Source of the DNA: Eledone cirrhosa
Lineage: Eukaryota
Reading direction: 5' to 3'
DNA: 64,000 nt
NCBI GenBank assembly: GCA_964016885.1
Contig: OZ024741.1
Span: forward strand, 314,898,001-314,962,000
Shown here: positions 561 through 26,996 of the stretch, piece after piece
How the letters are laid out: every line of letters begins with the position of its first letter
How positions within the stretch are numbered: position 1 is the first letter of the stretch
Notes under the pieces: generated by a model
What the model was told of the DNA's origin: nothing
The model's database searches: none
Seen by the model: the letters and a program-made list of their open reading frames with translations, nothing else
Position numbers and translations under genes: made by a program

Positions 561-695
561 AATGCCCAGTAGGAAAGTTTGGTTTATTTTGTCATGGGAT
601 ATGCCATTGTATGCACAACTATTTCTGTGACAAGAGATATGGATATTGTTTAAGTGGATGTGCTGCAGGTTATTTTGGTCGCAACTGCCAAGAAG
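561..695 (+). CDS. EGF-like repeat exon 1 (type A) of a MEGF10/SCARF-like multi-EGF membrane protein
   Basis: ATATTTTCAG acceptor, G|GTATTT donor, 135 nt, phase 1-1; (E)CPVGKFGLFCHGICHCMHNYFCDKRYGYCLSGCAAGYFGRNCQE, 8 Cys in MEGF-type spacing. Confidence 0.93.
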
Positions 696-753
696 GTATT
701 TCCTAAAGATGCTAAGTATTTATTTGAGAACGCAAATATCGTATATATATATA

Positions 754-795
<42 letters not shown>

Positions 796-816
796 TGTAC
801 TTGTGTGTAAGTATGG

Positions 817-862
<46 letters not shown>

Positions 863-899
863 GTGTGTATGTGTGTGTATGTGTATAAATGTGTGTATG

Positions 900-930
<31 letters not shown>

Positions 931-1097
931 ATGTATATGTGTGTGTGCGTGTGTGTGTGTGCATGTATGTTTATCTACTTTTATATTTATTATTTTTCCT
1001 TTACTTCTTCCTTTTCCAGCCTCACTTTCATATATATTATATTATATATTATATTTTTGTTTTTAAAATCCACTGTCAATAAATATACCAGGATTTT

Positions 1098-1156
1098 TTC
1101 ATTCTGATGACTGAAAGCAAATTTTGTTTGCTTTCAAGAAACCACTGGTAAATGAA
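1098..1156 (+). ncRNA. Type I hammerhead ribozyme motif
   Basis: ttcatt-CTGATGA-c tgaaagcaaa/tttgctttca a-GAAA-ccactgg-TA-aatgaa: stem I 6 bp, stem II 10 bp, GUA site. Confidence 0.82.
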
Positions 1157-1920
1157 TTAATTATTTGATGTTGTTTATTACATAACTAATAAGCTCTGTA
1201 ACCTACATAGAACACTCTTTTTTCCTGGAACTTTCCGACGGAATTAATTCTTTTATATATATATATATATATATAATAAGAGAATGCGAAGTAGTTTCAG
1301 ATTTTAAAGTCCTTTAAGGGTGTGATACATATTTCAATGACGACAGAGGCCACCCGCTTCTGTGTACCAAGTGCCGTGACATCATCTGATAGCGTATACA
1401 TAATAAGGTTATGTTCCCGAGGCAATCCAAATTAAATCGACAAGGGAACGGACACAGCGGGGGTTCTTGAATCCTTCGACCGATCCCGTGTGTCTAAATT
1501 CACCCCACCGTTTTCCGCAGGCGCAAGTCCGAAGGAAGTTGAACATCCACTATCCCAAAACCCTACGAAACTCGCCTAGGCATGTCCCCTCACACCACAA
1601 CGAAATAATCTCCCATCCAGGTCGGTAATATGAGACGGTTATAGTTTACTTCTAGTCGCCCAGCCAGTGGCAGTTGAACGAAACCTAGTGGTGGTGGCAG
1701 AGTATGAGTTACAATAGACCTCGATTCTGCCCCTAAATTATGCTTGGACAATATAATTGACCATCACCCGCTAAGAGAATATAAACTTAATTCTAGATTT
1801 TATGATTTCACAGTTGAAATTATGATAAAAAATTAGAAATTAAAAAATTACAAGCTAAATTCTTAAATTGAAGTAAATAAATAAAAAATGTTTTTTTAAA
1901 TATACATATATAGATAAATG

Positions 1921-2100
1921 TGGCACAATGTGGCACAATGCCAGCAATTACACAGTGCATTACTGGTATTTTATTTTATCGACTCCGTAAGGATGAAAGG
2001 CAACGTTAAGCTCGACGGGATTTGAACTCAGAATGGCCGTAACTCTATGCGTCAAAGCATGGGGGTACGGCCTTCTACCGATACTGCCAACCCTCCGCCA
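1921..2100 (-). mobile_element. SINE copy (further copies at about 11783-11956, 13083-13255, 18740-18926, 25115-25252, 27722-27912)
   Basis: Same family as 40999-41179; most copies were carried along with the exon duplications. Confidence 0.85.
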
Positions 2101-2139
<39 letters not shown>

Positions 2140-3326
2140 ACTAATAATTATAAATAGGGAGATGTTTAAATTATAGTAAGAAGTTTTGAAAGGGGGAACA
2201 TATTACAGATATATTAGCGATTTATTGAACGATAGTACCGTACAGCAGAACGGAGGGTAAATTATAGTATGAAAAGTAGTAATTAGGAAAATAATTAGTT
2301 AATAACTTCTTCTATCACATGAATGAAAACAAAACAAAAAGTACAGAGATGCAAAATGAGTGAGGAGACATTTATGAGAAAATATATACGAGGAAGATAA
2401 ACTGAGAAAGGTTCCATCTCAGCGTACTCAATAGGTAATGTAAAATACACTCCCAGAGTATACATATAGTTATTCGCTTCAATAAAACACACGTAAACGG
2501 GTTACTATAGTAGTTCCCAAATTCGAGTTTCTGCCACACTTAATGCAGCAGTAAGGTGCATTGCACCCCCTGTCCGCATATATTTTGCAACAATGCATAA
2601 TCGGGGAATATGGCTTCATCAGCAGTTTTCGCCTAATCAATAATCAATCGATTTGACCGAATTCGACTCCAGTCCGTGCAGGCTATGACTGCTTGTGACG
2701 GCCAAAACAGTAAAGTGATTAGCAACTGGAATCTGAGAGAATGCTGTACCCCGATATGTATATATATATATATTTATATATATATATTTGCGTTTGATTT
2801 CTTTCCGTTCCTACACAAGATTCATGGCCATAGGTAAAGGCTGGTACAAGAAAATCAAATTGAAGAATACGAGTTTGGCTTTTATACCTACCTCCCTTCT
2901 TCTCATCTTGGGATGCTGAAGTTGGCGCAATGTATATATATATAGAGAGAGAGGTAATACCTCCGCAGCGTGGAAAGTTTAACTAGCCCAAGGGTGTATA
3001 ACAGTGGGGATGAGGTATTCCTTTAAATCTTCATCAACACTAATTTACTCCGCCTCCCGACACACCCAAATCTCTTTTATATAAAGTCACAGATCACAAC
3101 ACAACCTGAGATGAGTTTGACAATCCCTAACCGACGAATGCAAGAAAATTGTCTAGGAAATTTAATCAGGAATCTTTCAAATTCTCCCCACCAAAGTTAA
3201 CAAAGAATTTACTAGATCTACAAAACCAAATTGTAAAATTATGATATTATGAAAAAAAGAGGATTCTTTAGAACTACAGGTGAAGACATTCTTTTCCTTT
3301 CTTTCAATATGGCCAACTGTACCAAG

Positions 3327-3381
<55 letters not shown>

Positions 3382-4730
3382 AAAATCAATTAAGCTAGTC
3401 CGGAGGAGACAAAGGTGGTTAGTTACGCAGATTACTAGCCATTATAGAGAGGTTTGTGTGGTCAATGCATATAAGTTGTTAGACTAGCGAGCCATGCAAT
3501 TAAATGTAAAGAGAGATAGCTTAATAGTCGGAATTTCGTAGTGAAGAGACTAATTAACATTCAAATGCACAAATACACACACACACATGAAAACATACAC
3601 ACGCACACGCACACACACGCACACACACACACGTGCTTATTTGTTGTCGTTAAATGTAAGAATATCAGTGATAAATAATGCAGACACCGATAAGTAGTGT
3701 AAAAGTTGTAATATTTTTTTGTGTAATTTAGCAGCTTATATTGATTATTACCTCCATATCAACATCATCCTCATCATCGTTCATTGCCCATCTTCCACGC
3801 TAGAATGGGTAAGATAGGCTATGCCATTGTGAGTGATCAACTTGGGATCCGTGATTCGCTCACATAGAATTCATTTTGGCTTGGTTTCTATGGATGGTTT
3901 CCCATCCTTACGACAAACACATTTACAGTGTGTACTGGGTGCATTTAGCTGTGTCGCCTTCATTCTGTGTCGCCTACATCCTGTGTCGCCTACATTCTGT
4001 GTCGCCTACTTTCTAGTATTGCCTGTGTGCTTCTTGTCGTGTCGCGTACACAACCACTTTACAGTGTGGACTGGGCGCTCGCTTTTGTCATGACACCTAC
4101 ATGACCACAATTGAGTGGGCTGCGCTCTTTAGGCGTGGCTTCCGGGGGATCACTTTATAGAGAAGGTTGAAATTGTGAAGATGCTTGGGGAAATTGGGGA
4201 CGTCATAAGTATAGGGGAGGTTTATGGGATGGTTGGGAGTGTTGTTGCCTACTAGGTATATGCCTGAGCCCGAGAATAATAGAAGTTGAGTTTTCTGTAA
4301 TACATCATAGCACGATAGGTCACAGTCCTGTGTCATCGCCTTAATAGAGCAAAGTCAGCTTTATTACCACATCTCAAGTCTTCCTAGACCGTCCTCCTTA
4401 TGTACTTGCCTATCTAGTTGCAGCGTTGCTGACCTACCAAGATAGGGAAACTCTGAAAAATAACTGCGGCTTCTGAACCTGCAGGTTCGTCGGACACTTG
4501 CAATAATTTTGGATCATATTTTCCCACTGTGGTGTTAGCGTCAAAAAACATCTTCCTCGCTTGTCCTGCTGTTGGCCGTTGTTTTTCTACGTCATCATAA
4601 ATTCTGGCCAATAGTAGTTGTCAGACTGGCCATCGGCTGTCCCTCTGCCTGGCCCGACGCACTTCAATGAATTCATGCTGGGTTTGGTATTTCACAAGTC
4701 CACTCGCGGTCTAACACACACATATACACA

Positions 4731-4815
<85 letters not shown>

Positions 4816-4856
4816 TATATGAAAAATGGCGTGCTCCGTGATTGCAAATGGGTTAC

Positions 4857-5686
4857 ATATGAATAAAATTAGTCCTTCATCAGCGATCTTCCAACCTTCA
4901 TTGGCATTTCCTCGCTTTAAAATCATATACCCTGGTTGGTGCGAGCAATAACTAAAGTTATTGGGACACGTCAAATAGGGTGAAGCGAGCGAGACATGTA
5001 AACAAACATAGATAGTAATGCAACGGAAAGAGAGGAAGGGAAGAGACTAGTCCCTGATATCTATGAACTTAAGTACCGTGAAATCATAGACGAGAGATAA
5101 AGACCATCCGACCTGGGTGAGATGTGAGTGAGAAAAGGGTTTCACGCAGGTCAAACGGGAGGAAGTGGGAGAGAGGAGTAGCAGAGAGTGAGTGAGAGAA
5201 ATTGTGAGGAAGAGGCCAGCTGAGAGAGAGTGACTGGCTATACATCAGGTTGGTGCGAGCAATAACTAAAAAAAGTTATTGACCCTCTTTTTACCCCCTC
5301 TGCCAGTCTCTCTCTCTCTCAGCTGGCCTCTTCCTCACACTTTCACTCACTCACTCTCTGGTACTACCCCTGTTCCTCCCGTTTGACCTGTGTGAAATCC
5401 TTTTCTCACTCACATCTCACCCAGGTCGGTTGATCTTTATCTCTCGTCTATGATTTCACAGAACTTAAGTTCATAGATATCACGGACTTGTTTCTTCTCT
5501 TCCTCTCTTTCCGTTGCATTACCATCTATGTTTGTTTACATGTCTCACTCACTTCACCCTAATTTACGTGTCCCAATAACTTTTTTTTAGTTATTGCTCG
5601 CACCAACCAGAGGTATATGATCTTTAAAGCGAGGAAATGCCAATGAAGGTTGGAAGATCACTGATGAAGGACTAATTTTATTCATA
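4857..5686. repeat. Inverted repeat, about 380-bp arms
   Basis: 4857-5238 is the reverse complement of 5302-5686, with scattered mismatches. Confidence 0.88.
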
Positions 5687-6122
5687 TATTTTAAGGATCG
5701 ATCTACTTTCGTCAAATCGGACCGAGGAAACAATGTTTTCGTCTGTCTTTCCAGTTGCTAATACTATCTATCGGTCGCAACTTCAGGTAAAAGGAGCAAC
5801 GTGAAATAAAGTGTCTTGCTCAAGGACATAACGCATCGCCTGGTCCAGGAATCGAACTCACAATCTCAAGATTGTGAATGCAATTCTCTGACCAATCAGC
5901 CACACGCCTTCATATATATATATATACAACTCACATACACACACACGCACAGAACCATATAACTAATAACATTCGCTTCTACAGACGCCTGCCTACATGC
6001 CCGCGTACATCACCTCTCATACACACACGCGCATACACACCCGCACGCACATACATTCGTACACACACATAAATGTACACACAAACAAGCCCTTACCCTA
6101 CAGTAGGTGCACGTACACACGC

Positions 6123-6157
<35 letters not shown>

Positions 6158-6864
6158 TTGGCTCATATACACTCAAACAAATACGCACCTTATATCTACA
6201 TGCCCACGTACATCTACAAAGATACATACACACATACATATATCTGTCCGTACTCAAATATGATATACTCACAGAGTCATATCAATCTGCACAATGGGTC
6301 ATACAGGGTCATCCATGAAAGGATGCATCTTGTTATACACATGCACAAATATAAACAATGCAACCAAATACATACATCCATACACATACATGCATGTATA
6401 CATACGCACATATAAATAAATAAATAAGTATATGAAAAAGAAATAAATGTATATATATATGCACATACATATGTATATATATATATATACACACACACAC
6501 ATACACATATATATGTACATGCACACACATACATACACATCTATAAAAAAAACTACAACATACAAAAATATACATATAACGTCATACATTAAAAGATGTA
6601 TCTTGTACTAAACATGCACGAATATAAACAGTATAATCATATACATACATCCATACACATTCACATACCATGTACATACATATCTCTCTCTACATACACA
6701 CACATATATATATACACATACGCACACACATATACACACATAAAAAAATATATATACAATATATTAAAATATACATATAACGTCACATAGAGATATATTT
6801 AAAAAAAAGAGAAGAAAGATGGAGGGACGTGTATGCGTATGATATAGTACATATGGGGAATATA

Positions 6865-7333
6865 CATCCGCGATTTAAAGGTCGTGGATGTTGCGCCGAT
6901 GGAGGTGAACTTTATATTGTGGGTGCTAACCACACATTTATATACCAGGCCCTTCGTCAGGCATCTTGTCTGTACGAGGCACTGGGTGCCCGCTCTGCAG
7001 TTACCTGATCTGTCGTTATTTTGTTCACTTCGGACGCCTGGCCCTCGATCTACTAGGGCCCTTCTCCCGATTCTCAGGGTGTTGTTCCGCTGGCACAATG
7101 GGCACGATGGTCCCCCCCCCTTCCGCCACAAGTCCTCTCCTGGCGTTGGATTATATCGCCTTCTGTGGGCGTGGCGGCCTCCGCGGGGCCGGGTTGTAGT
7201 TGTAGGGCCGCCGGTCCCCGTAGGTTTCTCCACGCTCCGATGGATGGTCATTCTGCCGCCGCGGTTGACGGACGATGTTCCCCATCATTACCTCGTTGCT
7301 TTTGGCCATGTATTCGGCCATGTTAGGTGCTGT
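6865..7333 (-). mobile_element. Inverted partial copy of the adjacent PLE
   Basis: GNCRAGTQCLVQTRCLTKGLVYKCVV..SIGATSTTFKSRM; reverse-complement similarity to 7387-7850. Confidence 0.75.
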
Positions 7334-7386
7334 TGAGAAGGAAAACTTCACCGTGTGACGGTTGGAAATCTTGTGGTATTTTGTCA

Positions 7387-8545
7387 ACAGTACCTAACAT
7401 GGCCGACTACATGGCCAAAACCAACGCGGTAAAGATGGGAAACATCGACCGTCAAACGTGGCGGCAGAATGACAGTCCATCGTAGCGTGGAGGAACCTTC
7501 GGGGACCGGCCTTCCAACAACAACCCGGCCCCCGCGGCGGCCGCCACGTCGGCGGAAGGCTATATAATCCAGCGCCAGGAGGGAACGAGTGGCGGGGGGG
7601 GGGGGGAGACCATCGTGCCGGCGGTACAACACCCTGAGAATCAGGAGAGGGGCCTAGCAGATCGAGGGCCAGGCGTCCGAAGTGAACAAAATAAAGACAG
7701 AACATGTAACTGCAGAGCGGGCATCACAGCCCCCTACAGAAAAGATGCCTGACGAAGAGCCTGGTATTTAAATGTCTTGATAGCACCCATAATATAAAGC
7801 ACACATACATCGGCGAAACATCCACGATCTTTAAATCGCGGATGTATAATCCAGACAAACTCTTTCAAGAACCACAGTAAGAGGCACTCTAATAGGCTAG
7901 CGGACCTGGTGTGGGACTTGAAAGACAAAAGCCCTTGACTGGACTATCGTTCGGCACGCGAATGCATACTCGGCTGCAAGTAGTAAGTGTAGCCTATACC
8001 TATACGAGACCATGGAAATAGTCAACCTGAAATCGGAAATGATCATGACCTGCAGACACCAGAGAAGGTGCACACTCTCCGCATGGAATCCACCGGGAAG
8101 CCCAGACTAAGGGCAGGCGGTGGAGCACGCACCGACCAGAGCCACAAAACAGGTTCAAGGGATCAGACACCATAGGCTGATGACAATATATGCCCCGTGG
8201 GGTAAACTAAAACAACCCAAGATGCATACCCGTCTCTGCACGTTACCCTAGGCAAGGTCATCGCCTGAGCCGGGACAGTTTGACCCGGATTCCGCGGTCT
8301 TTCAGTCAAATACCTTACACCTATAGGACAACATACCTCAACCACAGTGACATACTCCAATATGGCCGGGCTAAGCACCCCCATGCATGTGTACCTTTTC
8401 AATCGAGAAAACATATTCTCCACGTGTTCCATTTTGGAACACATATTATTTGTTCTGTATACAGACCCAATTGTGCATCTCATATTCCCCATATGTACTA
8501 TATCATACGCATACACGTCCCTCCTTCTTTCTTCTCTTTTTTAAA
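7387..8545 (+). mobile_element. Decayed Penelope-like (Neptune-type) 3' fragment with GIY-YIG remnant
   Basis: Fragments reading TCNCRAG, CLTKSLVFKC, YIGETSTIFKSRMYN, LVWDLK, MTCRHQR; inverted partial copy at about 6865-7333. Confidence 0.75.
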
Positions 8546-9073
8546 TATATCTATGTGACGTTATATGTATATTTTAATATATTGTATATATATTTTTTTT
8601 TATATGTGCGTATATGTGTATGCGTATGTGTATATATATATATGTGTGTGTATGTACATGGTATGTGAATGTGTATGGATGTATGTATATGAATATACTG
8701 TTTATATTCGTGCATGTTTCGTACAAGATACATCTTTTAATGTATGACGTTACATGTATATTTTAGTATAATGTAGTTTTTTATTGATGTGTATGTATGT
8801 GTGTGCATGTACATATACATGTGTGTGTGTATGTGTGTGTATACATATATGTATGTGTGTATATTTATGTGTGTGAACATATACATGTGTGTTTGGGAGC
8901 GAGTCTGTTATTGTGCCTGTATATACGGACACGTGTATGTACGTGTGTGCGTCTGTGTGTGCGTGTGTATGTGTGAGAGAGCAGATGTACGTGGGCATGT
9001 AGGCAGGCGTCTGTGGACGCGTATGTTGTTAGTTATATGGTTGTGTGCGTATGTGGGTGTATGTGAGTGTGGT

Positions 9074-9153
<80 letters not shown>

Positions 9154-9668
9154 TGTGTGTCTGTGTGTGTGTGTGTGCGCGAGTCGACTTGTGAAATAGC
9201 AAACCCAGCATGAATTCATTGAAGTGTGTCAGGCGGAGGGTCAGCTGATGGCCAGTCTGACAGAAACTATTGGCCAGAATTTATGATGACGTAGAAAAAC
9301 AACAGTCAACAGCAGGACAAGCGAGAGAGATATTTTTTGAGGCTGACGCCACAGTGGGAACATTTGATTCGAAATTATTGCAAGTGTCCGACGAACCTGC
9401 AGGTTCATAATCAAACAGATCCTTACAATGATCGTATCTCGAGCTGTCTGCGGAGAAACAATTGTAACACACAATAAATTCAATGATTTTTCCTTTTATA
9501 TTATATCACACTCTGCTCTGTAAGAACATAGAGTGCTCCTCCGGCATACCACCTATGGAAGCATCTTAGCTACCATCAGAAACACACTCACACACACACA
9601 CACATATATGTTGATTTAAAACTGCACTATCCACAAGTGTTTTTTAACCTTCATATCATGTCTTCCTG

Positions 9669-9735
9669 TTTTATCTGATGAAAACACAAATATTATTGCA
9701 TGATGATATTTGTTTTTGAAATGCGCATAATAAAA
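9669..9735 (+). ncRNA. Minimal type I hammerhead ribozyme (TGCGCA family)
   Basis: ttttat-CTGATGA-stem II-GAAA-tgcgca-TA-ataaaa; palindromic stem III. Confidence 0.8.
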
Positions 9736-9860
9736 TACATGGAACTCTTTTAACCATCTTTTGTTCTTATATATTATATATACTCCAGTCCTACAAACTG
9801 TAGAGTGCTTCTTATCCGATATCTGCATTGCTTTATTGTACTACAATAAAACTCACCTCC

Positions 9861-9894
<34 letters not shown>

Positions 9895-9928
9895 ACGTAA
9901 AATATTAACTTACTTACTTAAATTTTCA

Positions 9929-10008
9929 CTCCAACTAATTAGTTTCTGCAATGGGATAAAGACAGTTACGTAATGAACTGTTGAGAATTTTATTGCGTCA
10001 TCAGGGAG
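9929..10008 (-). ncRNA. Minimal hammerhead motif (CTAATTAG)
   Basis: Minus strand: ctcc-CTGATGA-cgcaat..attgca-GAAA-ctaattag-TT-ggag. Confidence 0.68.
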
Positions 10009-10337
10009 GTCATTCTCAGCCGAGTCTCCAGTTTTTAAAAAAAAATTTTTAACATTTATTTAAAGAAATTTTCTTATTTTACGTCTTATATATTATTGTT
10101 CTGCATTCTCCTGCATTGAACCACCTAGGTACTATGACATAACCTGTGTATTTGCTGGCATTAGCGTACATCTGTGCGCTTATGTTAGTAGATATATTAA
10201 ATTATCTCTATATATATATATATATGTAGATAAATCTACCAAAAGTTTACGGTAGTGTCCAATCCGTATGAAGAACTCAATGTAATCCGGATATCATGAA
10301 AAGAGAAGATACATTCAAAAACTAATTTCGGTGAAAA

Positions 10338-10398
10338 ATAAACGGAAAACATAAACATATATACACATACACACACATACACACATATATACATATAT

Positions 10399-10429
<31 letters not shown>

Positions 10430-10664
10430 CATGCAAATATACATACATACATATATATATACACACACATACACATTTACAAATACATATAATTATTGGG
10501 GGGGGGGGATTAAAATTATTAGTGAGAAATAATAAATATATATAGATTTCTATATATATTTATTATTTCTCACTAATAATTTTAATTCCCCCCCCCCCCA
10601 ATAATTATATGTATTTGTAAATGTGTATGTGTGTGTATATATATATGTATGTATGTATATTTGC

Positions 10665-10722
<58 letters not shown>

Positions 10723-10757
10723 ATATATGTATATATGTGTGTATGTGTGTGTATGTG

Positions 10758-10770
<13 letters not shown>
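10338..10770. repeat. Palindrome centred near 10548
   Basis: G-run/C-run and the flanking microsatellites mirror each other. Confidence 0.8.
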
Positions 10771-10814
<44 letters not shown>

Positions 10815-12225
10815 TATTTTTATATTCTTTTAATTCCCCTCATCTTTAACAGCACTTTTCAACTGCATCTAACTCTTATTTATCATATCTATATGTATTA
10901 GTATAATTTTATCAATATAAATATACCCATCAATTAAATTAATTTATATTCTTTTCATAGATGTATTTATTTTCACTAACACTCTTATCGTAAAACTTTA
11001 GTCTCCTTAGATATTTGCATTGGAATTACTATTTTATAACAACAACTGCTTGTATACCTTTTACTGACCACCTGACCTATTTTCACCCCTAAAATAAGCT
11101 TTAATTACTACTATTTTACAATTCGGCCAATTATTAACTTTCTATTGGTTAATTCTAAACCTCTTACCAAACAGACAGAATATATTAGATCTTTGTTGGT
11201 TTTATTCAATGAACAAATAAAATTATTTCTGAGGTCAGCATAAGACCTATTTTCTTCCCTAAAATAATCCTTCATTCATAATATTCTTTTCCATCCAAAA
11301 CTGAAATCTACCTTCCTCTACCCATAATTTAAGGTTCTTCTACTACTATATTACTATCTTGAACCTTACTATCTCTCTATTGGTCAATTCAAAACCTGTT
11401 CCCAAACAGACCCATTCTATTGAATCTTTGTTTTTTTCAATAAACAAATATCATTATTTCTGAAGACAGCATATATATGTGTAGGTATGTATATTCCCTC
11501 TGATAGTTTGTATAAATATTGTACATAGATCTATAGAATATGCATACCAACTCTAACACACATATATCCTAGAAACGATCGTAAAATGATGACATTTTTT
11601 TTAATATAACGAACTGTTTCTTTGTTTATTCATTGTTTCATTAATTTATATATATATATATATATATATAAATTAAAAATATAACTAAAAATGAGGTTAA
11701 TACCCAGAATCACTAGTGTCTGCAGTTCTGTTTACATGCCAACACATGAGCAAGTATTAGGGGCTCATTCAATATCACTAATAATTGTTTCTATTTTAGG
11801 CACAAGGCCAGCAATTAACCATTACGTTACTGGTACTTTATTTTATCGACCCCGTAAGGATGAAAGGCAAATTAACCTCGGCCTGATTTGAACTCAGATC
11901 GTAAAGGGACGTAACTATGCTGGAAAGCATGTCCGATCCTCTACCGATACTGCCAAAATTATAGTAGAACTGATTCAAGGAAAGGTTTCTGATATTTATG
12001 CATGCAATGTTTCTAATTATATTGATTATTATTTACTATAAGGTCATAAGGCATTGTAAAATTGCTGTTCTGGTTTTACATGAACTTAACATCTCTTTAT
12101 GTAATATACTGTATCAATGTATTATTTAATAGTTGTATGCAGACTGATTCGTTTATCACCACTTTAATCTAATAATTTTTGATATGGTATAAAATTGATG
12201 CCACATTTACAATTGATATTTTCAG

Positions 12226-12360
12226 AATGCCCAGTAGGAAGGTATGGTATAATTTGTCGTGGGACATGCCATTGTATAAACAACATTAACTGCGACAGGG
12301 TAAATGGATCTTGTTCAGATGGATGTGCTGCAGGTTATACTGGTGACAGCTGCGACGAAG
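12226..12360 (+). CDS. EGF-like repeat exon 2 (type B)
   Basis: AG/GT bounded, 135 nt, phase 1-1; (E)CPVGRYGIICRGTCHCINNINCDRVNGSCSDGCAAGYTGDSCDE; absent from the ORF track. Confidence 0.92.
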
Positions 12361-14257
12361 GTATTTCCTAAGGATGCTAAGTATTTACAATATTATATGT
12401 ACATATGTATATATATCTATATATATATATACATATATATATAATAAGAAAATGCAAAGTAGTTTCAGATTTTAAAGTACTTTAATGATAAGGCTGTGAT
12501 ACATATTTCAATGACGCTTTGTGTGCCCAGTACCGTAACATCATCAGACAGCTTTTTACATAATAAGGTTATGTTCCCGAGGCAATCGAAATTGAATCGT
12601 CAAGGGAACGGACAAAGCGGGTGTTCTTGAATCCTTCGCCCGATACCTTGTGAGTCCAAATTCACCCCCACCGGTTTCCGCAGGCGCATGTCCGAAGGAG
12701 TTGACCACCCACTATCCCAAAACTCTACGAAACTCGCCTGAGCAGGTCACCTCACTCCACAACGAAAAACTCACCCCCATCCAGGTCTGTAATATGACAC
12801 GGTTATAGGTTACTTCTAGTCGCGATGCCAGTGGCAGTTGAAGGAAACCTAGTGGTAGTGGCAGACTATGAGTTTCAATAGGCCTCGATTCTGCCCCTAA
12901 ATTATGCTTGGTCAATATAATTGCCCATCACCCGCTAAGAGAATACAAACTTAATTCTAGATCTTATGGTTTCACAGTTGAAATTATGATAGAAAATTAG
13001 AAATTAAAAGATTACAAGCTAAAATCTTAACTTGCAGTAAATAAAAATCAATAAACAAAAAAAATATATATATGTTTATATAATTGTTTCTACTTTTTGG
13101 CGCAGTGCATTACTGGTACTTTATTTTATAGACCCCGTAAGGATGGAAGGCGAAGTTAACCTCGGTGGGGTTTGAACTCAGAATGGCAAGGGCCGTAACT
13201 CTGTGCGTCAAAGAATGGCTGCCGACCCTCTACCGATACTGCCAATCCACCGCAATATATATATATGTATATATGTATATATGTATATATATAGGGAGGT
13301 GTTTAAATTACAGTGAGAGGTTTTGAAAGAGGGATCAATATTACAGATGTATTATCGATTTAGTAGAACGGAGGGTAAATTATAGTATGAAAAGTAGTAA
13401 TTAGCCAAACAATTAGTTAATAACTTCTTCTATCACATGAATGAAAACAAAACAAAACCTACATAGATGCAAAATGAGAGAGGAGACATTTATGAGAAAA
13501 AATATACGAGGAAGATAAACTGAGACGGGTTCGATCTCAGCGTACTCAATAGGTAATGTAAAATAAACTCCCAGAGTATACACATAGTTATTCGCTTCAA
13601 TACAACACACGTAAACGGATAACTATAGTAGTTCCCAAACTCGAGTTTCTTCTCACTTAATGCAGCAGTAAGGTGCACTGCACCCTCTCTCGGAATATAT
13701 TATGCAACAATGCATAATCGGTGCATCCGGTTTCATCAGCAGTTTTCGCCTAATCAATAATCAACAGAATTCGACTCCAGTCCGTGCTGGCTATGACTGC
13801 TTGTGACGACCAAAACAGTAAAGTGATTAGCAACTGGGATCTGATACAATGCTGTACCCAGATATATATATAAATTATTAAAAATGTTAGCTATCGCCGT
13901 ATTTTAACTAAAGAAATTAAAGAAATTATTTAACCTGATAGTGGGGTTAAGAACCCTCTTAGAAATGGAAAAAGATGAGTATTTACGTACATGGGAGTCG
14001 AACCCACATACTTGGTTATCCGGACCACTGTGCTGCCATTTACACCAACACATCACCCGCCTTTTTCCATTCAAATTAGAAGCTATAAACTTAGCGACTC
14101 TAATGTCAAGTAAGAATATTTTCGAAACAGCGAGTGGATTTGAAATTATTAGAAATGTTAGCTATCGCCGTATTTTGACTAAAGAAATTAAAGAAATTAT
14201 TTAGCCTGATAGTGGTGTTAAGAACCCTCGGAGAAATGGAAAAAGATGAGTATTGAC

Positions 14258-14297
<40 letters not shown>

Positions 14298-14301
<4 letters not shown>

Positions 14302-14827
14302 ATACTTTGGGAGGATCATGTTGCCAATAAGAAACACACGCACCAGTTGCTATCACTTCAATTTATGATATATTTATAAATTTATAAATTTACAAATCTA
14401 CAAACTTATAAATTTCTGGTTGGTTGGTTCCACAACCAGATAGTTGTTTATATATAGTCATAGTCCTTTCGTCACACACTCTGTGACCTCTTCAGTGACT
14501 GGGGATTCCTTTCTTTGTTTCTGTGCCTTTCCTTTCTTCTATCCTACGCCATTTTGTTTCTGAAACAAAATGGCGTAGGATAGAAGAAAGGAAAGGCACA
14601 GAAACAAAGAAAGGAATCCCCAGTCACTGAAGAGGTCACAGAGTGTGTGACGAAAGGACTATGACTATATATAAACAACTATCTGGTTGTGGAACCAACC
14701 AACCAGAAATTTATAAGTTTGTAGATTTGTAAATTTATAAATTTATAAATATATAATAAATTGAAGTGAAAGCAACTGGTGCGTGTGTTTCTTATTGGCA
14801 ACATGACCTTCCCAAAGTATGACAATA
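14298..14827. repeat. Near-perfect palindrome centred at 14561 (family also at 44770-45095 and 61190-61650)
   Basis: ..CCATTTTGTTTC t GAAACAAAATGG..; about 260-bp arms. Confidence 0.92.
14622..14666 (+). ncRNA. Minimal hammerhead motif (mirror copy 14456-14500 on minus)
   Basis: agtca-CTGAAGA-g gtcaca/tgtgac-GAAA-ggac-TA-tgact; related copies at 44841-44883 (GAAA mutated) and 61517-61559. Confidence 0.7.
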
Positions 14828-14882
14828 TCGGTTTCAACACACGATTTCAGATAAAGAATCTTGCTAAACAAATTCAGAAACG

Positions 14883-14938
<56 letters not shown>

Positions 14939-14999
14939 AGGTGTATTATTGGTTGTGTCATAAGGTTCAATTAACTTTTGTTAGCAATATCTCCACGCT

Positions 15000-17060
15000 T
15001 TTGTATATCTCCAATTCCATTTATGGGAACAGCTAGATGATGTAAAACGGAATAGTTGTATCAAAATAAAGATCCGAAGACATGGTATAAATTTCCAATC
15101 ATTTTAATCACGACACATGTTTCAATAAGAGATAGATCGATCATGCGGCCATGATGGATTATCACTGAACTCGTCAAGTGAAAATGAATTGTCTTCAAAT
15201 CCTTGATATGAGGGAGAAAATGTAACGATGTTCACCCACTACAGTTTTGCCCCCAAATGAAGATTAAGCAGCCAAAACACGCTGACTGCTATCGTCCTCA
15301 CTTAGGGTCATAAACTAACAAGTTTCTATCTCTCAATAGCTGTAAAAGACGCTGGACGGGTCTAATCTCAACATCAAATATTTAGAATTACAGTCGGTCA
15401 CAGTTAGTGTGAGTGAGTACACACACCGACGCGAGGTCGAAGAAAAAATATATATACAAACCAACATAGTATTCACCGAAAGTTAGTTTACAAAACGACA
15501 AATGTTATATTAGTCAAATCTCCATTTGACGGTGTACATTGGAGAAAATTGGGTCAACCGCAACCATATACACACGCAAGTAAATTCAGTTCAATATTCT
15601 GCTATACGTGTATCGATTGAATTGTAAATAGTGTGTTTTGGTATATACACATCCGTATCGTCTAAAAAAGTGTATGTTTTGGGATATACACATCCACGTG
15701 AAGAGCAAGTAGTCAGCTCATATCGAACTCTGTATGTGCCGTTGTCCCATTGAGAATCTGAGTCGCCAAATCTGTGCGTACAAGCAACCGCCATGTAGGC
15801 CACCAAGAGACTCTGTGTAGGGTTGGGTATTTGAGTTAAGGTGTCAGTATGTGCTTTTCCCGTCAAATGGGCCCCTGGGCTTTTAAGTTATGTGTTTGAG
15901 TAGTGGAGGGGTGTTACCCGACACAGAAATAAAATAAAATAAAATAAAAAAGAATAGCAAAACCCCGAGGGTGTGTGTAAGCCCATTAATGGTGTGTAAG
16001 TAATATTGTCCAATCAGTAACCGTGAGCACTCCATGGTTAGATGATCACGGATCAAAACCTAGTGTAGTGTTCAATTGATAGGATCGTGACCAGTCATAA
16101 CTGTGGGAACTCCGTGTCTAAAGAGACCGGATAGTGTGTAGAGTCATGTATAAAGAGCGTAATCGGTATTAACTGAGTGTGTAATACGTCTAACTATTTA
16201 CTAACCGAGAGAACTCAATGGTTAGGGTATTCTAAAGTAATGGTGAAAGCGCGTAATCGGTCTTAACTGAGTGTGTAATCATTCTAACTATTTACTAACT
16301 AGGTATTCTAAAGTAGTGGTAAATGTGCACTCAGCTGTGAAAACTCCGGGGAAACAAACCGAGTACCGTTTGTAAGTGAGCAAATGATCTAAGCTGTCTA
16401 CTACCTGAGTGTATGATTGTCTGTGTTTTGCTAATTGACAGAACTCTATGGTTAAGGTAAAAAGGGAGGAGTTAGTAGTAGGTTACTTTCCAAATATCCT
16501 GCGGAAGGTTTTCGAGGTTCTATGTTGGCAGTTGCTGAAACAATCCACTCTCCTATTGATTAATAGGAGGCCGCCTCTAATAATATTAAAGGTTTCGGCT
16601 ATATATAAATTACAGACGCCCGTGCTGCTGTTATAAGGCTGAGCTTCCAGACCAATTCAGAAAGCGCAGTTATATTTTTTTAATCTAATCTATTAAAGGT
16701 GATTATACCATCTATCCTTAAATTCAGTAGCAGTTGCTCCATCATACATGAAGGTTCTATCTAAAGTGGAGACCTTACAGTCCTAGACTATGTTTTTGGA
16801 GAGGCATTCCCCAGCCATGGGGCAAGTGGCGGTGTTCCTGAAATTCCATTTTCTGTTATCGACCTGGGTAGTTCCAGAGGAACCACGGTACCTCTGATGT
16901 CGGGTCTCAGTTATTGTCTGCTCTATGGGTAAGTTCCCAGGGGTTGGGGTGACCCGACTCGCCTCACGCGTATGAGACCGTTCATCCATAGAGCTGCCAT
17001 TAGTTCTGCCATGTCTCATCCCGCCTTGGGCTGTCCTAAGTCTACTACAATTCATCTTAT
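15000..17060 (-). mobile_element. Decayed Penelope-like 3' fragment (GIY-YIG remnant plus 3' region)
   Basis: TCPMAGECLSKNIV and PYNSSTGVCNLYIAETFNII..LLINRRVDCFSNCQHR on the minus strand; left boundary approximate. Confidence 0.68.
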
Positions 17061-17538
17061 TTTGATATATAATTGCAAACGAATCGAATATTATTATTAA
17101 TATTCGAAAACCTCAGATTACATTTATTGTATTCAGCTATGTAGGGCGAATTTTTTTTTTTATTTGAATATTGCAAAGCCAGACATAGATCGCTTGTATT
17201 TTGTCGTTAAATATAAGAATATCACTAATAATTGTAGTAGAACTGATTCAAGGAAAGATTTCTGATATTTGTGCATGCAATGTTTCTAATTATATTGATT
17301 ATTATTTTCCATAAGGTCATAAAGCATTGTCAAATTGCTGTTCTGGTTTTACATGAACTTAACATCTCTTTATGTAAAATACTGTATCAATATTTTATTT
17401 AATAGTTGTATGCAGACTGATTCGTTTATCAACACTTTAATCTTATAATTATTGATATGGTATAAAATTGATACCACATCTACAATTGTATGTAATTAAT
17501 GATATCTTCAACATTATCATGTATACTGATATTTTCAG

Positions 17539-17673
17539 AATGCCCAGCAGGAATGTATGGTTTATTTTGTCATGGGATATGCCATTGTATGCACAACTAT
17601 TACTGTGACAAGAAAAATGGATTTTGTTCAAATGGATGTGCTGCTGGTTATATGGGGCCCGACTGCCAACAAG
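17539..17673 (+). CDS. EGF-like repeat exon 3 (type A)
   Basis: AG/GT bounded, 135 nt; (E)CPAGMYGLFCHGICHCMHNYYCDKKNGFCSNGCAAGYMGPDCQQ. Confidence 0.93.
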
Positions 17674-17881
17674 GTATTTCCTAAAGATGCTAAGTATTTA
17701 TTTGAGAACGCAAATATCGTCCCTGGGTGGTGTTTGTTTTTGAGATGCACATAGTAAAATACATGGAACTTTTTTAAGCCTCTTTTAATTTTTCTTATAT
17801 ATACTCCAGTCCAATAAACTGTTGAGTGCTACTTATCCGATATTTGCATTGCTTTATTGTGCGACAATAAAACTCACCTCC

Positions 17882-17931
<50 letters not shown>

Positions 17932-17987
17932 TGAGATTCTACAAGACTAGAACTGTTTCATTCATTAGAAATCATCAGGAATCATCA

Positions 17988-18040
17988 GAGATTCCTGATG
18001 ATTTCTAATGAATGAAACAGTTCTAGTCCTGTAGAATCTC
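17988..18040 (+). ncRNA. Type I hammerhead (TTCTAG-loop family; mirror copy 17933-17983 on minus)
   Basis: gagattc-CTGATGA-tttctaatgaat-GAAA-cag ttctagtc ctg-TA-gaatctc. Confidence 0.8.
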
Positions 18041-18126
18041 ATTTATATTGAAACTGTTATACTCTGCTATGTATTGAGTACCTTACTTACTGTGGTTACC
18101 TCCGATTCAACCCGGAATAACGTAAT

Positions 18127-18203
<77 letters not shown>

Positions 18204-18932
18204 GTGTGTGTATGTATATATTTATATGTATGTATGTGTATGTGTATATATGTGTGTATTGCTTACCACGTGTGTTTGTTTATTTATTTGTGTCCTTTCC
18301 TGTATCGCTGACAAATTAATAATAATTTATATTTTCTTAAGTCTTATTTTTTTTTTTTTTTTTTACATCCACTATCCCAAAACTCTACGAAACTCGCCTA
18401 GGCAGGTCCCCTCACACCACAACGAAATAATCTCCCATCCAGGTCGGTAATATGAGACGGTTATAGTTTACTTCTAGTCGCCCAGCCAGTGGCAGTTGAA
18501 CGAAACCTAGTGGTGGTGGCAGAGTATGAGTTACAATAGACCTCGATTCTGCCCCTAAATTATGCTTGGATAATATAATTGACCATCACCCGCTAAGAGA
18601 ATATAAACTTAATTCTAGATCTTATGGTTTCACAGTTGAAATTATGATAAAAATTAAAAATTAAAAAATTACAAGCTAAATTCTTAAATTGAAGTAAATA
18701 AATAAAAAAACATTTTTTTAAATATATATATAGATAAATGTTTCTACTTTTTGGCACAATGCCAGCAATTACACAGTGCATTACTGGTATTTTATTTAAT
18801 CGACTCCGTAAGGATGAAAGGCAACGTTAACCTCGATGAGATTTGAACTCAGAATGGCAAGGGCCGTAACTCTATGCGTCAAAGCATGGGGGTCCGGCTT
18901 TCTACCGATACTACCAACCCTCCGCCATATAT

Positions 18933-18972
<40 letters not shown>

Positions 18973-19579
18973 CAAATTAATAGGGAGATGTTTAAATTAT
19001 AGTAAGAAGTTTTGAAAGGGGCATCAATATTACAGATATATTAGCGATTTATTGAATGATAGTACCGTACAGCAGAACGGAGGGGAAATTATAGTATGAA
19101 AAGTAGTAATTAGGAAAATAATTAGTTAATAACTTCTTCTATCACATGAATGAAAACAAAACGAAAAGTACAGAGATGCAAAATGAGTGAGGAGACATTT
19201 ATGAGAAAAAATATACGAGGAAGATAAACTGAGAAAGGTTCCATCTCAGCGTACTCAATAGGTAATGTAAAATACACTCCCAGAGTATACACATAGTTAT
19301 TCGCTTCAATAAAACACACGTAAACGGGTAACTATAGTAGTTCCCAAACTCGAGTTTCTGCCACACTTAATGCAGCAGTAAGGTGCACTGCACCCTCTGT
19401 CCGCATATATTTTGCAACAATGCATAATCGGGGAATATGGCTTCATCAGCAGTTTTCGCCTAATCAATAATCAATCGATCGACCGGATTCGACTCCAATC
19501 CGTGCAGGCTATGACTGCTTGTGACGGCCAAAACAGTAAAGTGATTAGCAACTGGGATCTGAGAGAATGCTGTACCCCG

Positions 19580-19630
<51 letters not shown>

Positions 19631-20190
19631 CGTTTGATTTCTTTCCGTTCCTGCACAAGATTCATGGCCATAGGTAAAGGCTGGTACAAGAAAATCAAAT
19701 TGAAGAATACGAGTTTGGCTTTTATACCTACCTCCCTTCTTCTTATCTTGGGATGCTGAAGTTGGCGCAATGTATATATATATAGAGAGAGGTAATACCT
19801 CCGCAGCGTGGAAAATTTAACTAGCCCAAGGGTGTATAAAAGTGGGGATGAGGTATTCCTTTAAATCTTCATCAACACTAGGTTACTCCAACTCCCGACA
19901 CACCCAAATCTCTTTTATATAAAGTCACAGATCACAATACAACCTGAGATGAGTTTGACAATCGCTAACCGACCGACGAATGCGAGAAAGTTCTCTAGGA
20001 AACTTAATCAGGAATCTTTCAAATTCCCCCCACCAAAGTTAACAAAGAATTTACTAGATCTACAAAACCAAATTGTAAAATTATGATATTATGAAAAAAA
20101 GAGGAATCTTTAGAACTACAGGTGAAGTCATTCTTTTCCTTTCTTTCAATATGGCCAACTGTACCAAGGATGTATATATATATATATATA

Positions 20191-22230
20191 TTCGTATCGA
20201 GCATGGAGGGACCACTCTACAAAATTTCATGGCTCCTAGCCAGAATACTCAAACCCATCTTAGACACCTTGCCGGGACACGTTAACAGCTCCGAGGAGGT
20301 GTTGAAGCGCCTGCATCAAATGGATCCCGACACCAGAAGGAATAACAGATATGCCTTCAGCCTTGATGTAGTCGCTCTCTACACCTCGGTCCCGGCACTC
20401 CCGGCCGTCAATATACTAATGGAACGCGTCCAATCCACCGACCTACACTGCTTCGGGCTCACCACCACTGACATCCACCAACTCCTATCCATCGTCGTCG
20501 ACAACACCTACTTCGGATTCCTTGACCAAATATACCAACAAACCTCGGGATTGCCCATGGGATCAAGCCTATCAGGTGTTCTAGCGATCTCCTACATGGA
20601 CGACCTCGAACGCAAGGCACTCAACGCCTGCCACCCCAACGCCGTAGCCTTTTTCTCAAGATACGTGGACGATATACTCATCCTCACATCTTCCCAAGAC
20701 ACGGCGAACAGAATCTATGAGACGTTCAACAACACGTACGAGAACATTGACTTCAGTGTTGAACACCCCAACGATGACGGGTCACTTGCCCTCCTCGACT
20801 TCCGAATCAACATCACGGAACAAGGAGGGATCCACTGCAACTTCTACAGAAAGGCAGTCTGCAGGGACCTATTCGTTCACTACAAGTCCGCCCTCCCTAA
20901 CAGTGCCAAAAGAGGATACATCACGAACGAGATCGCGCGAATCAAAAACAGATGCAGCGATCCCGCGAATGGTGTCACTTATAACAAGCGATTCCTCGAG
21001 GTGCTGGAGACGAACGGGTACCCTACCTCGATCACAGACAGAATAGGAGACACCAGACGCAAGAGACAGAGAAGCACCCAAGGCAAGTGCTTCCTTAAAA
21101 TGCCACACCTGGGCGAGAAAACCACCAACGCTATCCGCTAGGCTATACGGAGGGAGGGCCTCGACATCCACCTGGCCCACTCGGGCCCCTCCCTGCGAAG
21201 ATGCCTCTCCAGGAAACCCGAAAAATCTACTGGCGCATGCTCCCTCAGAGACTGCCCGATACGCCATGCTAACTGTTGCCTACGCACATACGTCGTGTAT
21301 AAGATAGAATGTGACAGGTGCAACCAATACTACATAGGTAGCACAATTCGACCTTTGCACATCCGGATCAAGGAACACACTAAAACCAGGGCCTCGTCTT
21401 TCCGGAAACACATAGACAAATGCGGAAGCAAAGACGGAAGGCCCATTGTCACAATTCTAGCGACTGAAAGAAACGTCGGCACGTTACGTATCAAGGAAGC
21501 GCTTTTTATCAAACGACTGCAACCGCAAATAAACAACCGATCAGAGAGAAGCGAAATGAAATGTCTGGTTTAAGTTAACAAGCGATGGAACAACACACAA
21601 CACACGCACACACACACACGCAAACGAGACAACTACACACACACACGCACACACACACAGTAGCATTCCACCATACGAACATACTACACTGCCAATACAG
21701 ATGAACAAGGCAACAACACCCCCCTCCCACACACACACACACTCAAGCGAGAAAACAACACACGCACACACACACACAGTAACATTTAACAAACAGGCAG
21801 AGAATGGACTGACAGCTAGCGCCATCCCACTCCCACATTCGGCCGCTGACCTCTGTACGACCGACCCCATTTCACGCGCACGCGCGCTCTGCCTAATACC
21901 TCAGATATTCAAAACAACAAACAGCGAAAGACGCGTTCCTGACTTGTCCGACAGACAACCTTTTCCGCCACCCCGGAAAAAAAACCCAGTTGATGGATGT
22001 GAATCCGAAATATATAGGGACTATTAAATCTCTCCCAAGGTAACTCTCTCTTGTGTTGTTATTTTTATTTTATCCTTTATACTCTTCCCTTCATTCTACA
22101 CATCTCACACATCTTATACACATCACGCATCTCAACGTACACCTACCTACATCTCTCTCTCCACCACCGGACCTTGTTACCCGGAGATTTACCCATTTGC
22201 ATTGTCGAGGTTTTCAAACGACTTAAAGAT
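20191..22230 (+). mobile_element. 5'-truncated Penelope-like retroelement, young, inserted in (TA)n
   Basis: RT motifs FSLDVVALYTSV, QTSGLPMGS, RYVDD, LALLDF; GIY-YIG VVYKIEC..YYIGST..RIKEH in the same frame after one TAG; absent at the paralogous (TA)n site near 3330-3376. Confidence 0.93.
20203..21573 (+). pseudogene. PLE reverse transcriptase + GIY-YIG endonuclease with one in-frame stop (21139-21141)
   Basis: ORFs 20122-21141 and 21295-21573 share a frame; the linker is open and contains a Cys cluster (CSLRDCPIRHANCC). Confidence 0.9.
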
Positions 22231-22258
22231 ATTTACATATATATATATATATATATAA

Positions 22259-22336
<78 letters not shown>

Positions 22337-23558
22337 GAAAGCAATTAAGCTAATTCGGAGGAGACAAAGGTGGTTAGTTACGCAGATTACTAGCCATTAT
22401 AGAGAGGTTGGTGTGGTCAATGCATATAAGTTGTTAGACTAGCGAGCCATGCAATTAAATGTAAAGAGAGATAGCTTAATAGTCGGAATTTCGTAGTGAA
22501 GAGACTAATTAACATTCAAATGCACAAATACACACACACACATGAAAACATACACACGCACACGCACACACACGCACACACACACACGTGCTTATTTGTT
22601 GTCGTTAAATGTAAGAATATCAGTGATAAATAATGCAGACACCGATAAGTAGTGTAAAAGTTGTAATATTTGTTTGTGTAATTTTGCAGCTTATATTGAT
22701 TGTTACTTCCATATCAACATCATCCTCATCATCATCGTTCATTGGTCATCTTCCACGCTAGTATGGGTAAGATAGGCTATCCCTTTGTGAGGTATGAGGT
22801 TGGGATCCGTGATTCGCTCATACATAATTCATTTTGGCTTTGTTTCTATGGATAGTTTCCCATCCTTAGATCAAATACATTTACAGTGTGTACTGGGTGC
22901 ATTTTGCTGTGTCGTCTACACAACCACTTTATAGCATTGCCTGGGTGTTTTTTGCCGTGTCGCCTACACAACCACTTTACAGTGTGGACTGGGCACTCGC
23001 TTTTATCATGACATCTACATGACCACTTTTGTGTGGGCTGCGCTGTTTTGGCGTGGCTTCCGTGGGATCCCTTTATAGAGAAGGTTGAACATTGGGGACG
23101 TCGTAAGTATAGGGGAGGTTTATGGGATGGTTGGGAGTGGTGTTGCCTACTAGGTATATGCCTGAGCTCGAGAATAATAGAAGTTGAGTCTTCTGTAATA
23201 CATCATAGCACAAGAGGTCACGGTCCTGTGTCATCGCCTTAGTGAGATGTAATTGAGCAAAGTCAGCTTTATTACTTCATCTCAAGTCTTCCTATGCCGT
23301 CCTCCTTATGTACTTGCTAATCTAGGAGCAGCGTTGCTGACCTACCAAGAGAGGGAAACTCAGAAAAATAACTGCGGCTTCTGAAGCATCCGATGATGTT
23401 GACCAGTTCTCCTTTACACGTAGTGTTTTCGGTGCTCAGAGAGTGGGATTGGTCGAGTGAAAAGGCTTTCCCCACTTAAAAAACCTTCAAAGCCAGGCAT
23501 TTCTTGTTCAAGATCTGTTACAAGCGATTGCAATACTCTTAGCAGAGTTTGCAGCCTT

Positions 23559-23655
<97 letters not shown>

Positions 23656-24273
23656 ATATATATATCTTAAAAAATATAACTAAAAAAAGGGTAATTCCCA
23701 GAATCACTAGTGTTTGCAGTTCAGTTTACATGCTAACACATGAGCAAGAACGAGCGGGTCATTCTAGTGACATGGATTTTAAAAAGAGGCGTGTTTGCAT
23801 AATTGCTAACGAATAGAATATTATTATTAATATTCGAAAAAGTCAGATTACATTTATTGTATTCAGCCATGTAGTGCTAAATTTTTATTATTTTTTGTTT
23901 AAATATTGCAAAGCCAGCCATAAATCGCTCGTATTTTGGCGTTAAGTATAGGAATATGACTAATAATTATAGTAGAACAATTTCAAGGAAAGATTTCTGA
24001 TATTTGTGCATGCAAGGTTTCTAATTATATTGATTATTATTTTCCATAAGGTCATAAGGCAATGTAAAATTGCTGTTCTGGTTTTACATGAACTTAACAT
24101 CTCTTTATGTAATATACTGTATCAATATATTATTTAATAGTTGTATGCAGACTGATTCGTTTATCACCACTTTAATGTTATAATTATTGATATGGTATAC
24201 ATTTGATACCACATCTACAATTGTACGTAATTAATGATATCTTCAACATTATCATGTATACTGATATTTTCAG

Positions 24274-24408
24274 AATGCCCAGTAGGAACGTATGATTTTT
24301 TTTGTAATGGGATATGCCATTGTGTGAACAACACTAACTGTGACAAGGGAAATGGATCTTGTCCAGCTGGGTGTGCTGCAGGATATACTGGTGACAGCTG
24401 CAAACAAG
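24274..24408 (+). CDS. EGF-like repeat exon 4 (type B)
   Basis: AG/GT bounded, 135 nt; (E)CPVGTYDFFCNGICHCVNNTNCDKGNGSCPAGCAAGYTGDSCKQ. Confidence 0.93.
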
Positions 24409-26861: not shown

Positions 26862-26996
26862 AATGCGCAGTAGGAGAGTATGGTTTATTTTGTCATGGGA
26901 TATGCCATTGTATGAACATCATTAATTGTGACAAGGTAGATGGATCTTGTTCAGATGGGTGTGCTGTAGGTTATCTTGGTGACAGCTGCCAACAAG
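26862..26996 (+). CDS. EGF-like repeat exon 5 (A/B mosaic-like)
   Basis: AG/GT bounded, 135 nt; (E)CAVGEYGLFCHGICHCMNIINCDKVDGSCSDGCAVGYLGDSCQQ. Confidence 0.92.

Follow-up and report, generated by a model that had tools for sequence, protein, structure and literature searches.

What kind of gene would let its exons diverge faster than the introns around them? The question is raised by a 64,000-nt stretch of the octopod Eledone cirrhosa (assembly GCA_964016885.1, contig OZ024741.1, positions 314,898,001 to 314,962,000 of the forward strand), which we call the window; coordinates count from its first letter, and its chromosome is given below as C2. An initial annotation had marked seven exons for EGF modules here and suggested a MEGF/SCARF-type receptor under diversifying selection or exon-focused gene conversion, with the rate pattern of a venom gene. 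Our analysis indicates that the window is the middle of a gene for a predicted 668-residue single-pass receptor, one of a family whose EGF loops and membrane anchor accumulate amino-acid changes at two to six times the rate of the adjacent introns. The reading that we favour, at a probability of roughly 0.6, is a recognition receptor family whose EGF loops and membrane helix were driven by pathogen recognition and evasion, an arms race.

All seven exons lie exactly where they had been placed. They are bounded by AG and GT, have phase 1-1 and encode eight cysteines without a stop codon; each gives a 44-residue module, and six exons are 135 nt long while the seventh is shorter (132 nt).

1..560, plus strand: flanking intron sequence 5' of exon 1, matching 16978-17538 at 98% identity; it served as the neutral yardstick
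561..695, plus strand: EGF module exon, fourth of ten in the gene (exon 1), 135 nt, from frame and splice sites
12226..12360, plus strand: fifth EGF module exon (exon 2), 135 nt
17539..17673, plus strand: sixth EGF module exon (exon 3), 135 nt, by alignment a recent duplicate of 561-695
24274..24408, plus strand: seventh EGF module exon (exon 4), 135 nt
26862..26996, plus strand: eighth EGF module exon, 135 nt
35231..35365, plus strand: ninth EGF module exon, 135 nt
46856..46987, plus strand: tenth and last EGF exon, 132 nt, of a type that also terminates the arrays of five other paralogs on the same chromosome

Exons 1 and 3 differ at 16 of 135 nt, which amounts to 13 amino-acid changes and 2 synonymous codons, against 11 mismatches and 1 indel in 559 nt of upstream intron (exon versus intron, Fisher p = 3.5e-6). 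Exons 2 and 4 differ at 21 nt, with 14 amino-acid changes and 3 synonymous codons. The counts of the initial annotation were therefore exact. Its single recent duplication for exons 1 and 3 is borne out by similarity running for about 2 kb on both sides, at 2.2% mismatch upstream (47 of 2169 aligned nt) and 3.3% downstream (60 of 1835), which puts the exon/intron ratio at 3.6-6x; exons 2 and 4, whose introns diverge by 6.6%, do not form a recent pair. The sixfold contrast is true of pair 1/3, but this is the most extreme pair: averaged over eight units and all codons, the nonsynonymous/intron ratio is 2.2. Taken alone, pair 1/3 shows a non-significant excess of nonsynonymous over synonymous difference (pN 0.141 versus pS 0.086; p = 0.73). 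Assembly error, a concern raised at the outset, was checked against three sequencing runs of the same sample (X1-X3). One contig of X1 matches 584-720 with 0 differences (none for X2 or X3 among the matches listed), in support of exon 1 as assembled; at 97% likeness and the depth of these runs, none of the three covers the stretch private to exon 3 (17605-17659).

Rates were estimated with a joint model of HKY introns and MG94-type codons with intron base frequencies, on a shared tree. By maximum likelihood (ML), the synonymous/intron ratio of the eight units was 0.92 (p = 0.83 versus 1) and the nonsynonymous/intron ratio 2.23, giving a nonsynonymous/synonymous ratio (omega) of 2.42 (p = 0.011). 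Leaving the introns unused, exon-only omega was 2.06 (eight units, p = 0.035) and 1.93, with site models M2a versus M1a at p = 0.0017 for the eight units; for all ten modules the exon-only p was 1e-5, with a selected class at omega of about 4 and no cysteine among the flagged sites. One of 25 neutral simulations reached an omega of 2.42 and none of 25 conversion-like ones did, the latter giving omega 1.0 and synonymous/intron of about 2.1. Signal-peptide exons of the family, parsed at 13 of 30 fetched loci, changed no faster than introns (omega 1.4, p = 0.4), and two dead EGF exons likewise kept to the intron rate (6/132 and 4/135 differences, versus 13/285 and 14/285 in introns). The eight units carry at least 53 nonsynonymous changes, yet in all ten modules the eight cysteines, the reading frame and the splice sites are intact. 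Diversifying selection, as first proposed, is supported, although the signal from the EGF modules alone is moderate. Exon-focused gene conversion is unsupported as the driver in this gene, since synonymous and intron rates agree, no recombination or templated conversion was detected (PHI-like p = 0.86; the pool comprised 126 modules, where the genome has at least 288) and the other exons of that pool lack most of the differences between exons 1 and 3. Units 1 and 3 also group together upstream, within the exon and downstream. Exon 1 encodes eight F/Y/W residues, the highest aromatic count of 90 intact modules (mode 2), and exon 3 six; neither carries an N-glycan sequon.

The gene around these modules was modelled from collinear blocks common to up to six paralogs, with splicing predicted. 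It runs from a signal exon through ten 8-Cys EGF modules and one membrane helix to a charged, low-complexity tail, and its open frames join with matching phases (64 + 9x135 + 132 + 94 + 502 = 2007 nt, 668 residues).

C2:314785045 (window -112955), plus strand: signal-peptide exon, 64 nt, from blocks shared with paralogs upstream
Window -32974, -20368 and -10914, upstream of the window: three further EGF exons
34932..34993, plus strand: dead EGF remnant, the 3' half of an exon without acceptor
56212..56305, plus strand: transmembrane (TM) exon, 94 nt, phase 1 to 2, in blocks collinear among paralogs; the most accelerated exon of the family
56306..56723, plus strand: intron following the TM exon, in which 23 paralogs from two chromosomes share about 94% identity
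Window 76513-77014, downstream of the window: first tail exon, from shared blocks and its acceptor

The predicted signal peptide comes from an ATG exon with a hydrophobic core that ends in phase 1, and such an exon stands upstream of 7/7 arrays examined. The predicted single TM helix is followed, in the tail exon, by a basic cluster, and the tail itself by a stop after 166 residues that derive from a K/D/S/G-rich 12-bp repeat; neither NPxY nor YxxL was present in the 160 of 166 tail residues examined. The signal-EGF-TM order recurs in all three genes tiled on C10, one of which has 3.4 kb from signal exon to first EGF exon, and between these two exons the three share only the first 2.2 kb of intron and no exon. 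The parts expected of a MEGF/SCARF-type receptor are therefore in place, and the likeness to a toxin falls away because the TM exon lies in frame and the predicted product would be membrane-bound. For the module itself, Pfam gave matches only below the cut-off, a PDB profile search matched SCARF1 (8hna, E = 0.009), and Atlas matches (0.90-0.91) fell in laminin-EGF/PEAR1-like clusters carrying PF00053 and PF23301. An AlphaFold model of one module was of low confidence (pLDDT 61.5) and a fold search with it returned no match at E<=0.001; neither was used. A DNA-rich 3.3-kb query met no RNA dataset among the matches listed.

It was unexpected that the TM helix should be more accelerated than any other part of the family; the initial annotation had dealt with neither this exon, which outpaces the EGF exons of the same window, nor the wider family, many of whose modules are unaccelerated. 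TM exon divergence is 27.6% versus 6.3% in the intron, and of the 253 pairs among 23 genes, 251 diverge more in the exon than in the intron (the pairs are non-independent; 25 loci were parsed of 30 fetched, two of them without an open exon). Across the 253 pairs pN is 0.36, with 0.064 at fourfold sites and 0.061-0.066 in the intron. ML omega is 3.44 for 16 of the 23 genes (p = 6e-9) and 3.54 for the 11 gap-free genes, rising to 3.79 without CpG codons (p = 2e-4). Given the fourfold value, multi-hit codons seem to have raised the Nei-Gojobori pS (0.19) and the tree-free synonymous count (N versus S p = 0.36, with S at four times the intron), and our inference relied on ML instead. At 23 of the 25 parsed loci the TM exon is hydrophobic and in frame.

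A tight pattern search of the 3.0-Gb genome found at least 288 module copies (control 0). Among the best 40 of 42 TM exon candidates, 16 lie at C2:310.4-315.6 Mb (one in a lectin gene, two without an open exon), 20 at C10:25.9-27.3 Mb, one on a small contig and three in lectin-bearing genes elsewhere on C2; together with a signal-exon search (best 40 of 55 candidates), these counts suggest a family of about 30-35 paralogs in two clusters. Its source appears to lie in the same genome. At C2:257.5 Mb stands a phosphatase receptor whose TM exon is also 94 nt long and uses the same acceptor; the intron after it can be aligned, and its EGF exons have an acceptor identical to that of this family. 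The sequences compared thereby establish common descent with this lectin-EGF-phosphatase receptor. Because the long form is spread across molluscs, we infer that the lectin and phosphatase exons were lost rather than gained. Phosphatase-receptor orthologues stand at C2:257 and 261 Mb.

Identification of the window's own gene as a lectin-EGF-phosphatase gene was considered and rejected, as neither a lectin nor a PTP exon was found at the locus. The 394 kb surrounding the window yielded none of either (the 80-kb first intron could hold a private exon); neither of the two F-type lectin exons among the matches listed at C2:310-316 Mb belongs to this gene; and the nearest PTP exons among the matches listed are 53 Mb away, with none in the fetched flanks. 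The family's signal, TM or tail occurred in none of 129 fetched database proteins, which is weak evidence, and a lectin exon of the cluster as query gave no homolog among 40 candidates.

How far do these rates speak for selection? A set of points weighs against it. The rate models are our own code, not PAML, and were fitted to 30-43 codons, and the neutral simulations are biased slightly upward (median omega 1.26). EGF omega is 1.9 with p = 0.13 once 12 codons in CpG context are dropped; the tree-free EGF comparison of N and S gives p = 0.16, with S/intron 2.4 (p = 0.05); and raw fourfold divergence of the EGF exons is 0.126 versus 0.034 in the proximal intron. The terminal EGF exon has a nonsynonymous/intron ratio of 1.0, and 13 recent copies in a neighbouring gene, like four repeat types of a giant array, change at about the intron rate. 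Synonymous sites of the TM exon run at 1.7-1.9x the intron (p about 0.04), and some of the exon/intron contrast may come from conversion or homogenised introns. Tails range from 55 to 166 residues across paralogs where read, and their frames differ.

These points can be read in two ways that do without positive selection. Conversion, or constraint, might have homogenised the flanks while the exons held older divergence under relaxed selection, a case that the initial annotation had itself raised for recent intron homogenisation. The raw synonymous excess of the window's modules over the proximal intron would fit, as would the raised TM synonymous rate and a TM intron that can be aligned even to the distant phosphatase gene; in the eight EGF units, however, synonymous and intron rates are level. 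Intron homogenisation alone gives no omega above 1, as the conversion-like simulations illustrate, whereas the exon-only EGF values and those of the TM exon (3.4-3.8) exceed it. The consistent grouping of units 1 and 3 and the PHI-like result also count against it, as does flank identity that spans more than 2 kb, repeats included; this explanation is disfavoured, and we consider it improbable. Very improbable, in our estimate, is that the arrays are mostly non-functional exons drifting neutrally, or that exons are locally hypermutable through CpG methylation and higher GC. This reading would account for the 22 broken modules among 56 in 200 kb of the giant array, for the loss of significance without CpG codons and for tails whose frames shift among paralogs, but not for ten intact modules in this gene, for dead and signal exons that keep to the intron rate, for TM exons that stay hydrophobic and open, or for a TM signal that persists after CpG removal.

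A further alternative accepts both receptor and selection and places the ligand inside the animal: a self/non-self, gamete or cell-identity code, with paralogs drifting apart so as not to cross-pair and the TM helix setting dimerisation among them. The fastest exon encodes a membrane helix out of reach of extracellular microbes, symmetric exons would permit many isoforms, and the selection was measured between paralogs, all of which suits such a code. Modules that are near-identical within and between genes are, by contrast, ill-suited to identity, and the only molluscan look-alikes with phenotype data are, in the available text of the two reports, tied to parasite resistance (PMC12297450, PMC13712769). 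We think this alternative unlikely, though less so than the other two.

The pathogen-driven reading could work as follows. The family would have derived from a lectin-EGF-TM-phosphatase stock by loss of the lectin and phosphatase exons. Symmetric phase 1-1 exons would duplicate together with their introns, so that module number could vary freely among genes. Without a lectin domain, the EGF modules themselves may bind ligand, with the array setting reach and avidity; the aromatics gained and glycan sequons lost in modules 4 and 6 are what an exposed binding face might be expected to show. Lacking a catalytic tail or tyrosine motif, the receptor may tether, engulf or signal through a membrane partner. 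Selection on the helix would then reflect contact within the membrane, through either paralog-specific pairing or escape from a pathogen protein (compare tetherin and Vpu). What the analysis establishes is the exon layout, the open frames with matching phases, the family size and the rates; we infer the splicing, expression, ligand, membrane partner and driver, along with any immune or self/non-self role.

The way in which cephalopods, lacking antibodies, recognise pathogens or self is still an open question, and this large, young, clustered family, with measured positive selection and built-in controls in its signal and dead exons, is a candidate locus. It is unusual for a membrane helix to be under strong positive selection across paralogs, and this points to contact inside the membrane. 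Going further, one could imagine an octopod variable-receptor system of about 30-35 receptors, devoid of lectin and phosphatase, with specificity both in hypervariable EGF loops and in a positively selected helix that chooses the partner (another family member, the ancestral phosphatase receptor or a membrane antagonist from a pathogen), in which skipping of symmetric exons, over arrays that reach 57 or more modules per gene, would yield a combinatorial, Dscam-like repertoire; we regard this larger scheme as speculative and rather doubtful.

Several features of the surroundings deserve mention. On C2 at 313089053-314007772 (plus strand), a stretch of about 920 kb runs from one signal exon to one TM exon, with no others between them among the matches listed; the first 510 kb hold at least 57 modules, and a 200-kb tile contains no signal or TM exon, so this might be a single gene whose EGF exons number well over 50. 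Within it, C2:313440001-313640000 is built of a higher-order repeat of about 23 kb with 6-7 modules, in which intact and dead exons (34 intact and 22 broken of 56) were copied together, and the dead ones would need skipping. The neighbouring gene at C2:314528333-314622185 has 13 near-identical modules with a period of about 7 kb, and at C2:310.3-310.95 Mb (minus strand) signal exons outnumber TM exons among the matches listed, which might reflect partial duplications or alternative first exons. A second signal exon copy, dead and without donor, lies at C2:314768645, 16 kb upstream of the intact one.

Downstream of the window, the tail exon and its acceptor are duplicated eight times in tandem (window coordinates 76513-98450), with possible tails of 166, 33, 213, 33, 213, 152, 66 and 66 residues; some are acidic-basic, some arginine-rich through a frameshift, and the last two have an altered acceptor. 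Beyond them, at window coordinates 105656-109171, 3.5 kb of non-coding sequence is about 86-90% identical among up to five paralogs and is likely 3' untranslated. The window itself holds an old insertion-like block at 54291-55400, in the same place in three paralogs and about 77% identical (a possible dating marker), a (TTTTAT)97 array at 48654-49227, a short degenerate TAACCC array at 58154-58217 and, at 58940-59080, a transposase-like fragment that we take, from its motif, to be of pogo/Tigger type. Many near-identical F-type lectin exons form separate clusters at C20 3.5-5.3 Mb, C27 13-15 Mb, C16 and C23, and about seven more lectin genes lie at C2:230-233 Mb.

How does the family compare with known systems? 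Vertebrate SCARF1, MEGF10 and PEAR1, insect Draper and Drosophila Eater/Nimrod are phagocytic or scavenger receptors, and those of class F bind modified lipoprotein, microbes or dying cells and drive their uptake. With them the family shares 8-Cys MEGF-type repeats and a single, here predicted, TM helix. MEGF10, Draper and CED-1 have an N-terminal EMI domain and cytoplasmic NPxY/YxxL motifs; here, unlike in those receptors, no shared exon that could encode an EMI domain lies between signal and first EGF exon, and the motifs were absent from the tail residues examined. The SCARF/MEGF relatives are also a few genes, rather than about 30-35 tandem paralogs. The best protein matches are molluscan MEGF/GBD receptor tyrosine phosphatases (Octopus P0001, P0002, P0009 and P0015; 57-59% module identity), which agree in the 135-nt exon, the acceptor context and a homologous 94-nt TM exon with its following intron, but alternate two module types where this gene has one. 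The lectin-phosphatase form corresponds, by the available account, to SudRes1 of B. sudanica (PMC12297450), a subgroup 1C type from which our gene differs in that neither an F-type lectin/galactose-binding domain nor cytoplasmic PTP domains were found.

For the rates, the closest parallel is in snake-venom PLA2 genes, in which, according to the portion of the report available, introns are more conserved than coding exons, the signal-peptide exon excepted, and KA is close to or above KS (PMC7285919). The venom-like rate pattern first noted thus holds here, with exons outpacing introns except at the signal exon and a ratio above 1, in a predicted membrane receptor rather than a secreted gland toxin. 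The tetherin TM domain is described in the accessible text as under positive selection by HIV-1 Vpu (PMC2633611), and selection within the helix is common to both; tetherin is an unrelated protein, and its selection acts between species in one gene rather than between paralogs.

Receptors of this type have already been described from snails. The literature searched mentioned neither the octopod expansion nor the family's descent from the phosphatase receptor stock nor selection on the membrane helix, and it gave no description of this cephalopod cluster, which the gene tables of cephalopod genome papers could hold. The snail LG5R region associated with schistosome resistance holds SCARF-like receptors of subgroup 1A, which, as far as the available text goes, have a signal peptide, an EGF/MEGF-type ectodomain, one TM helix and a small domain-free cytosolic part, and are clustered near lectin-bearing and lectin-plus-phosphatase relatives (PMC13712769), much as in Eledone. 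They belong to a different mollusc class, and exon-versus-intron rates and TM selection are not reported for them in that text. Since the TM exon and its intron tie the octopod family to its own genome's phosphatase receptor, it likely arose separately from the snail genes, and the same build reached in both suggests that molluscs repeatedly strip lectin-EGF-phosphatase receptors into fast-evolving variants.

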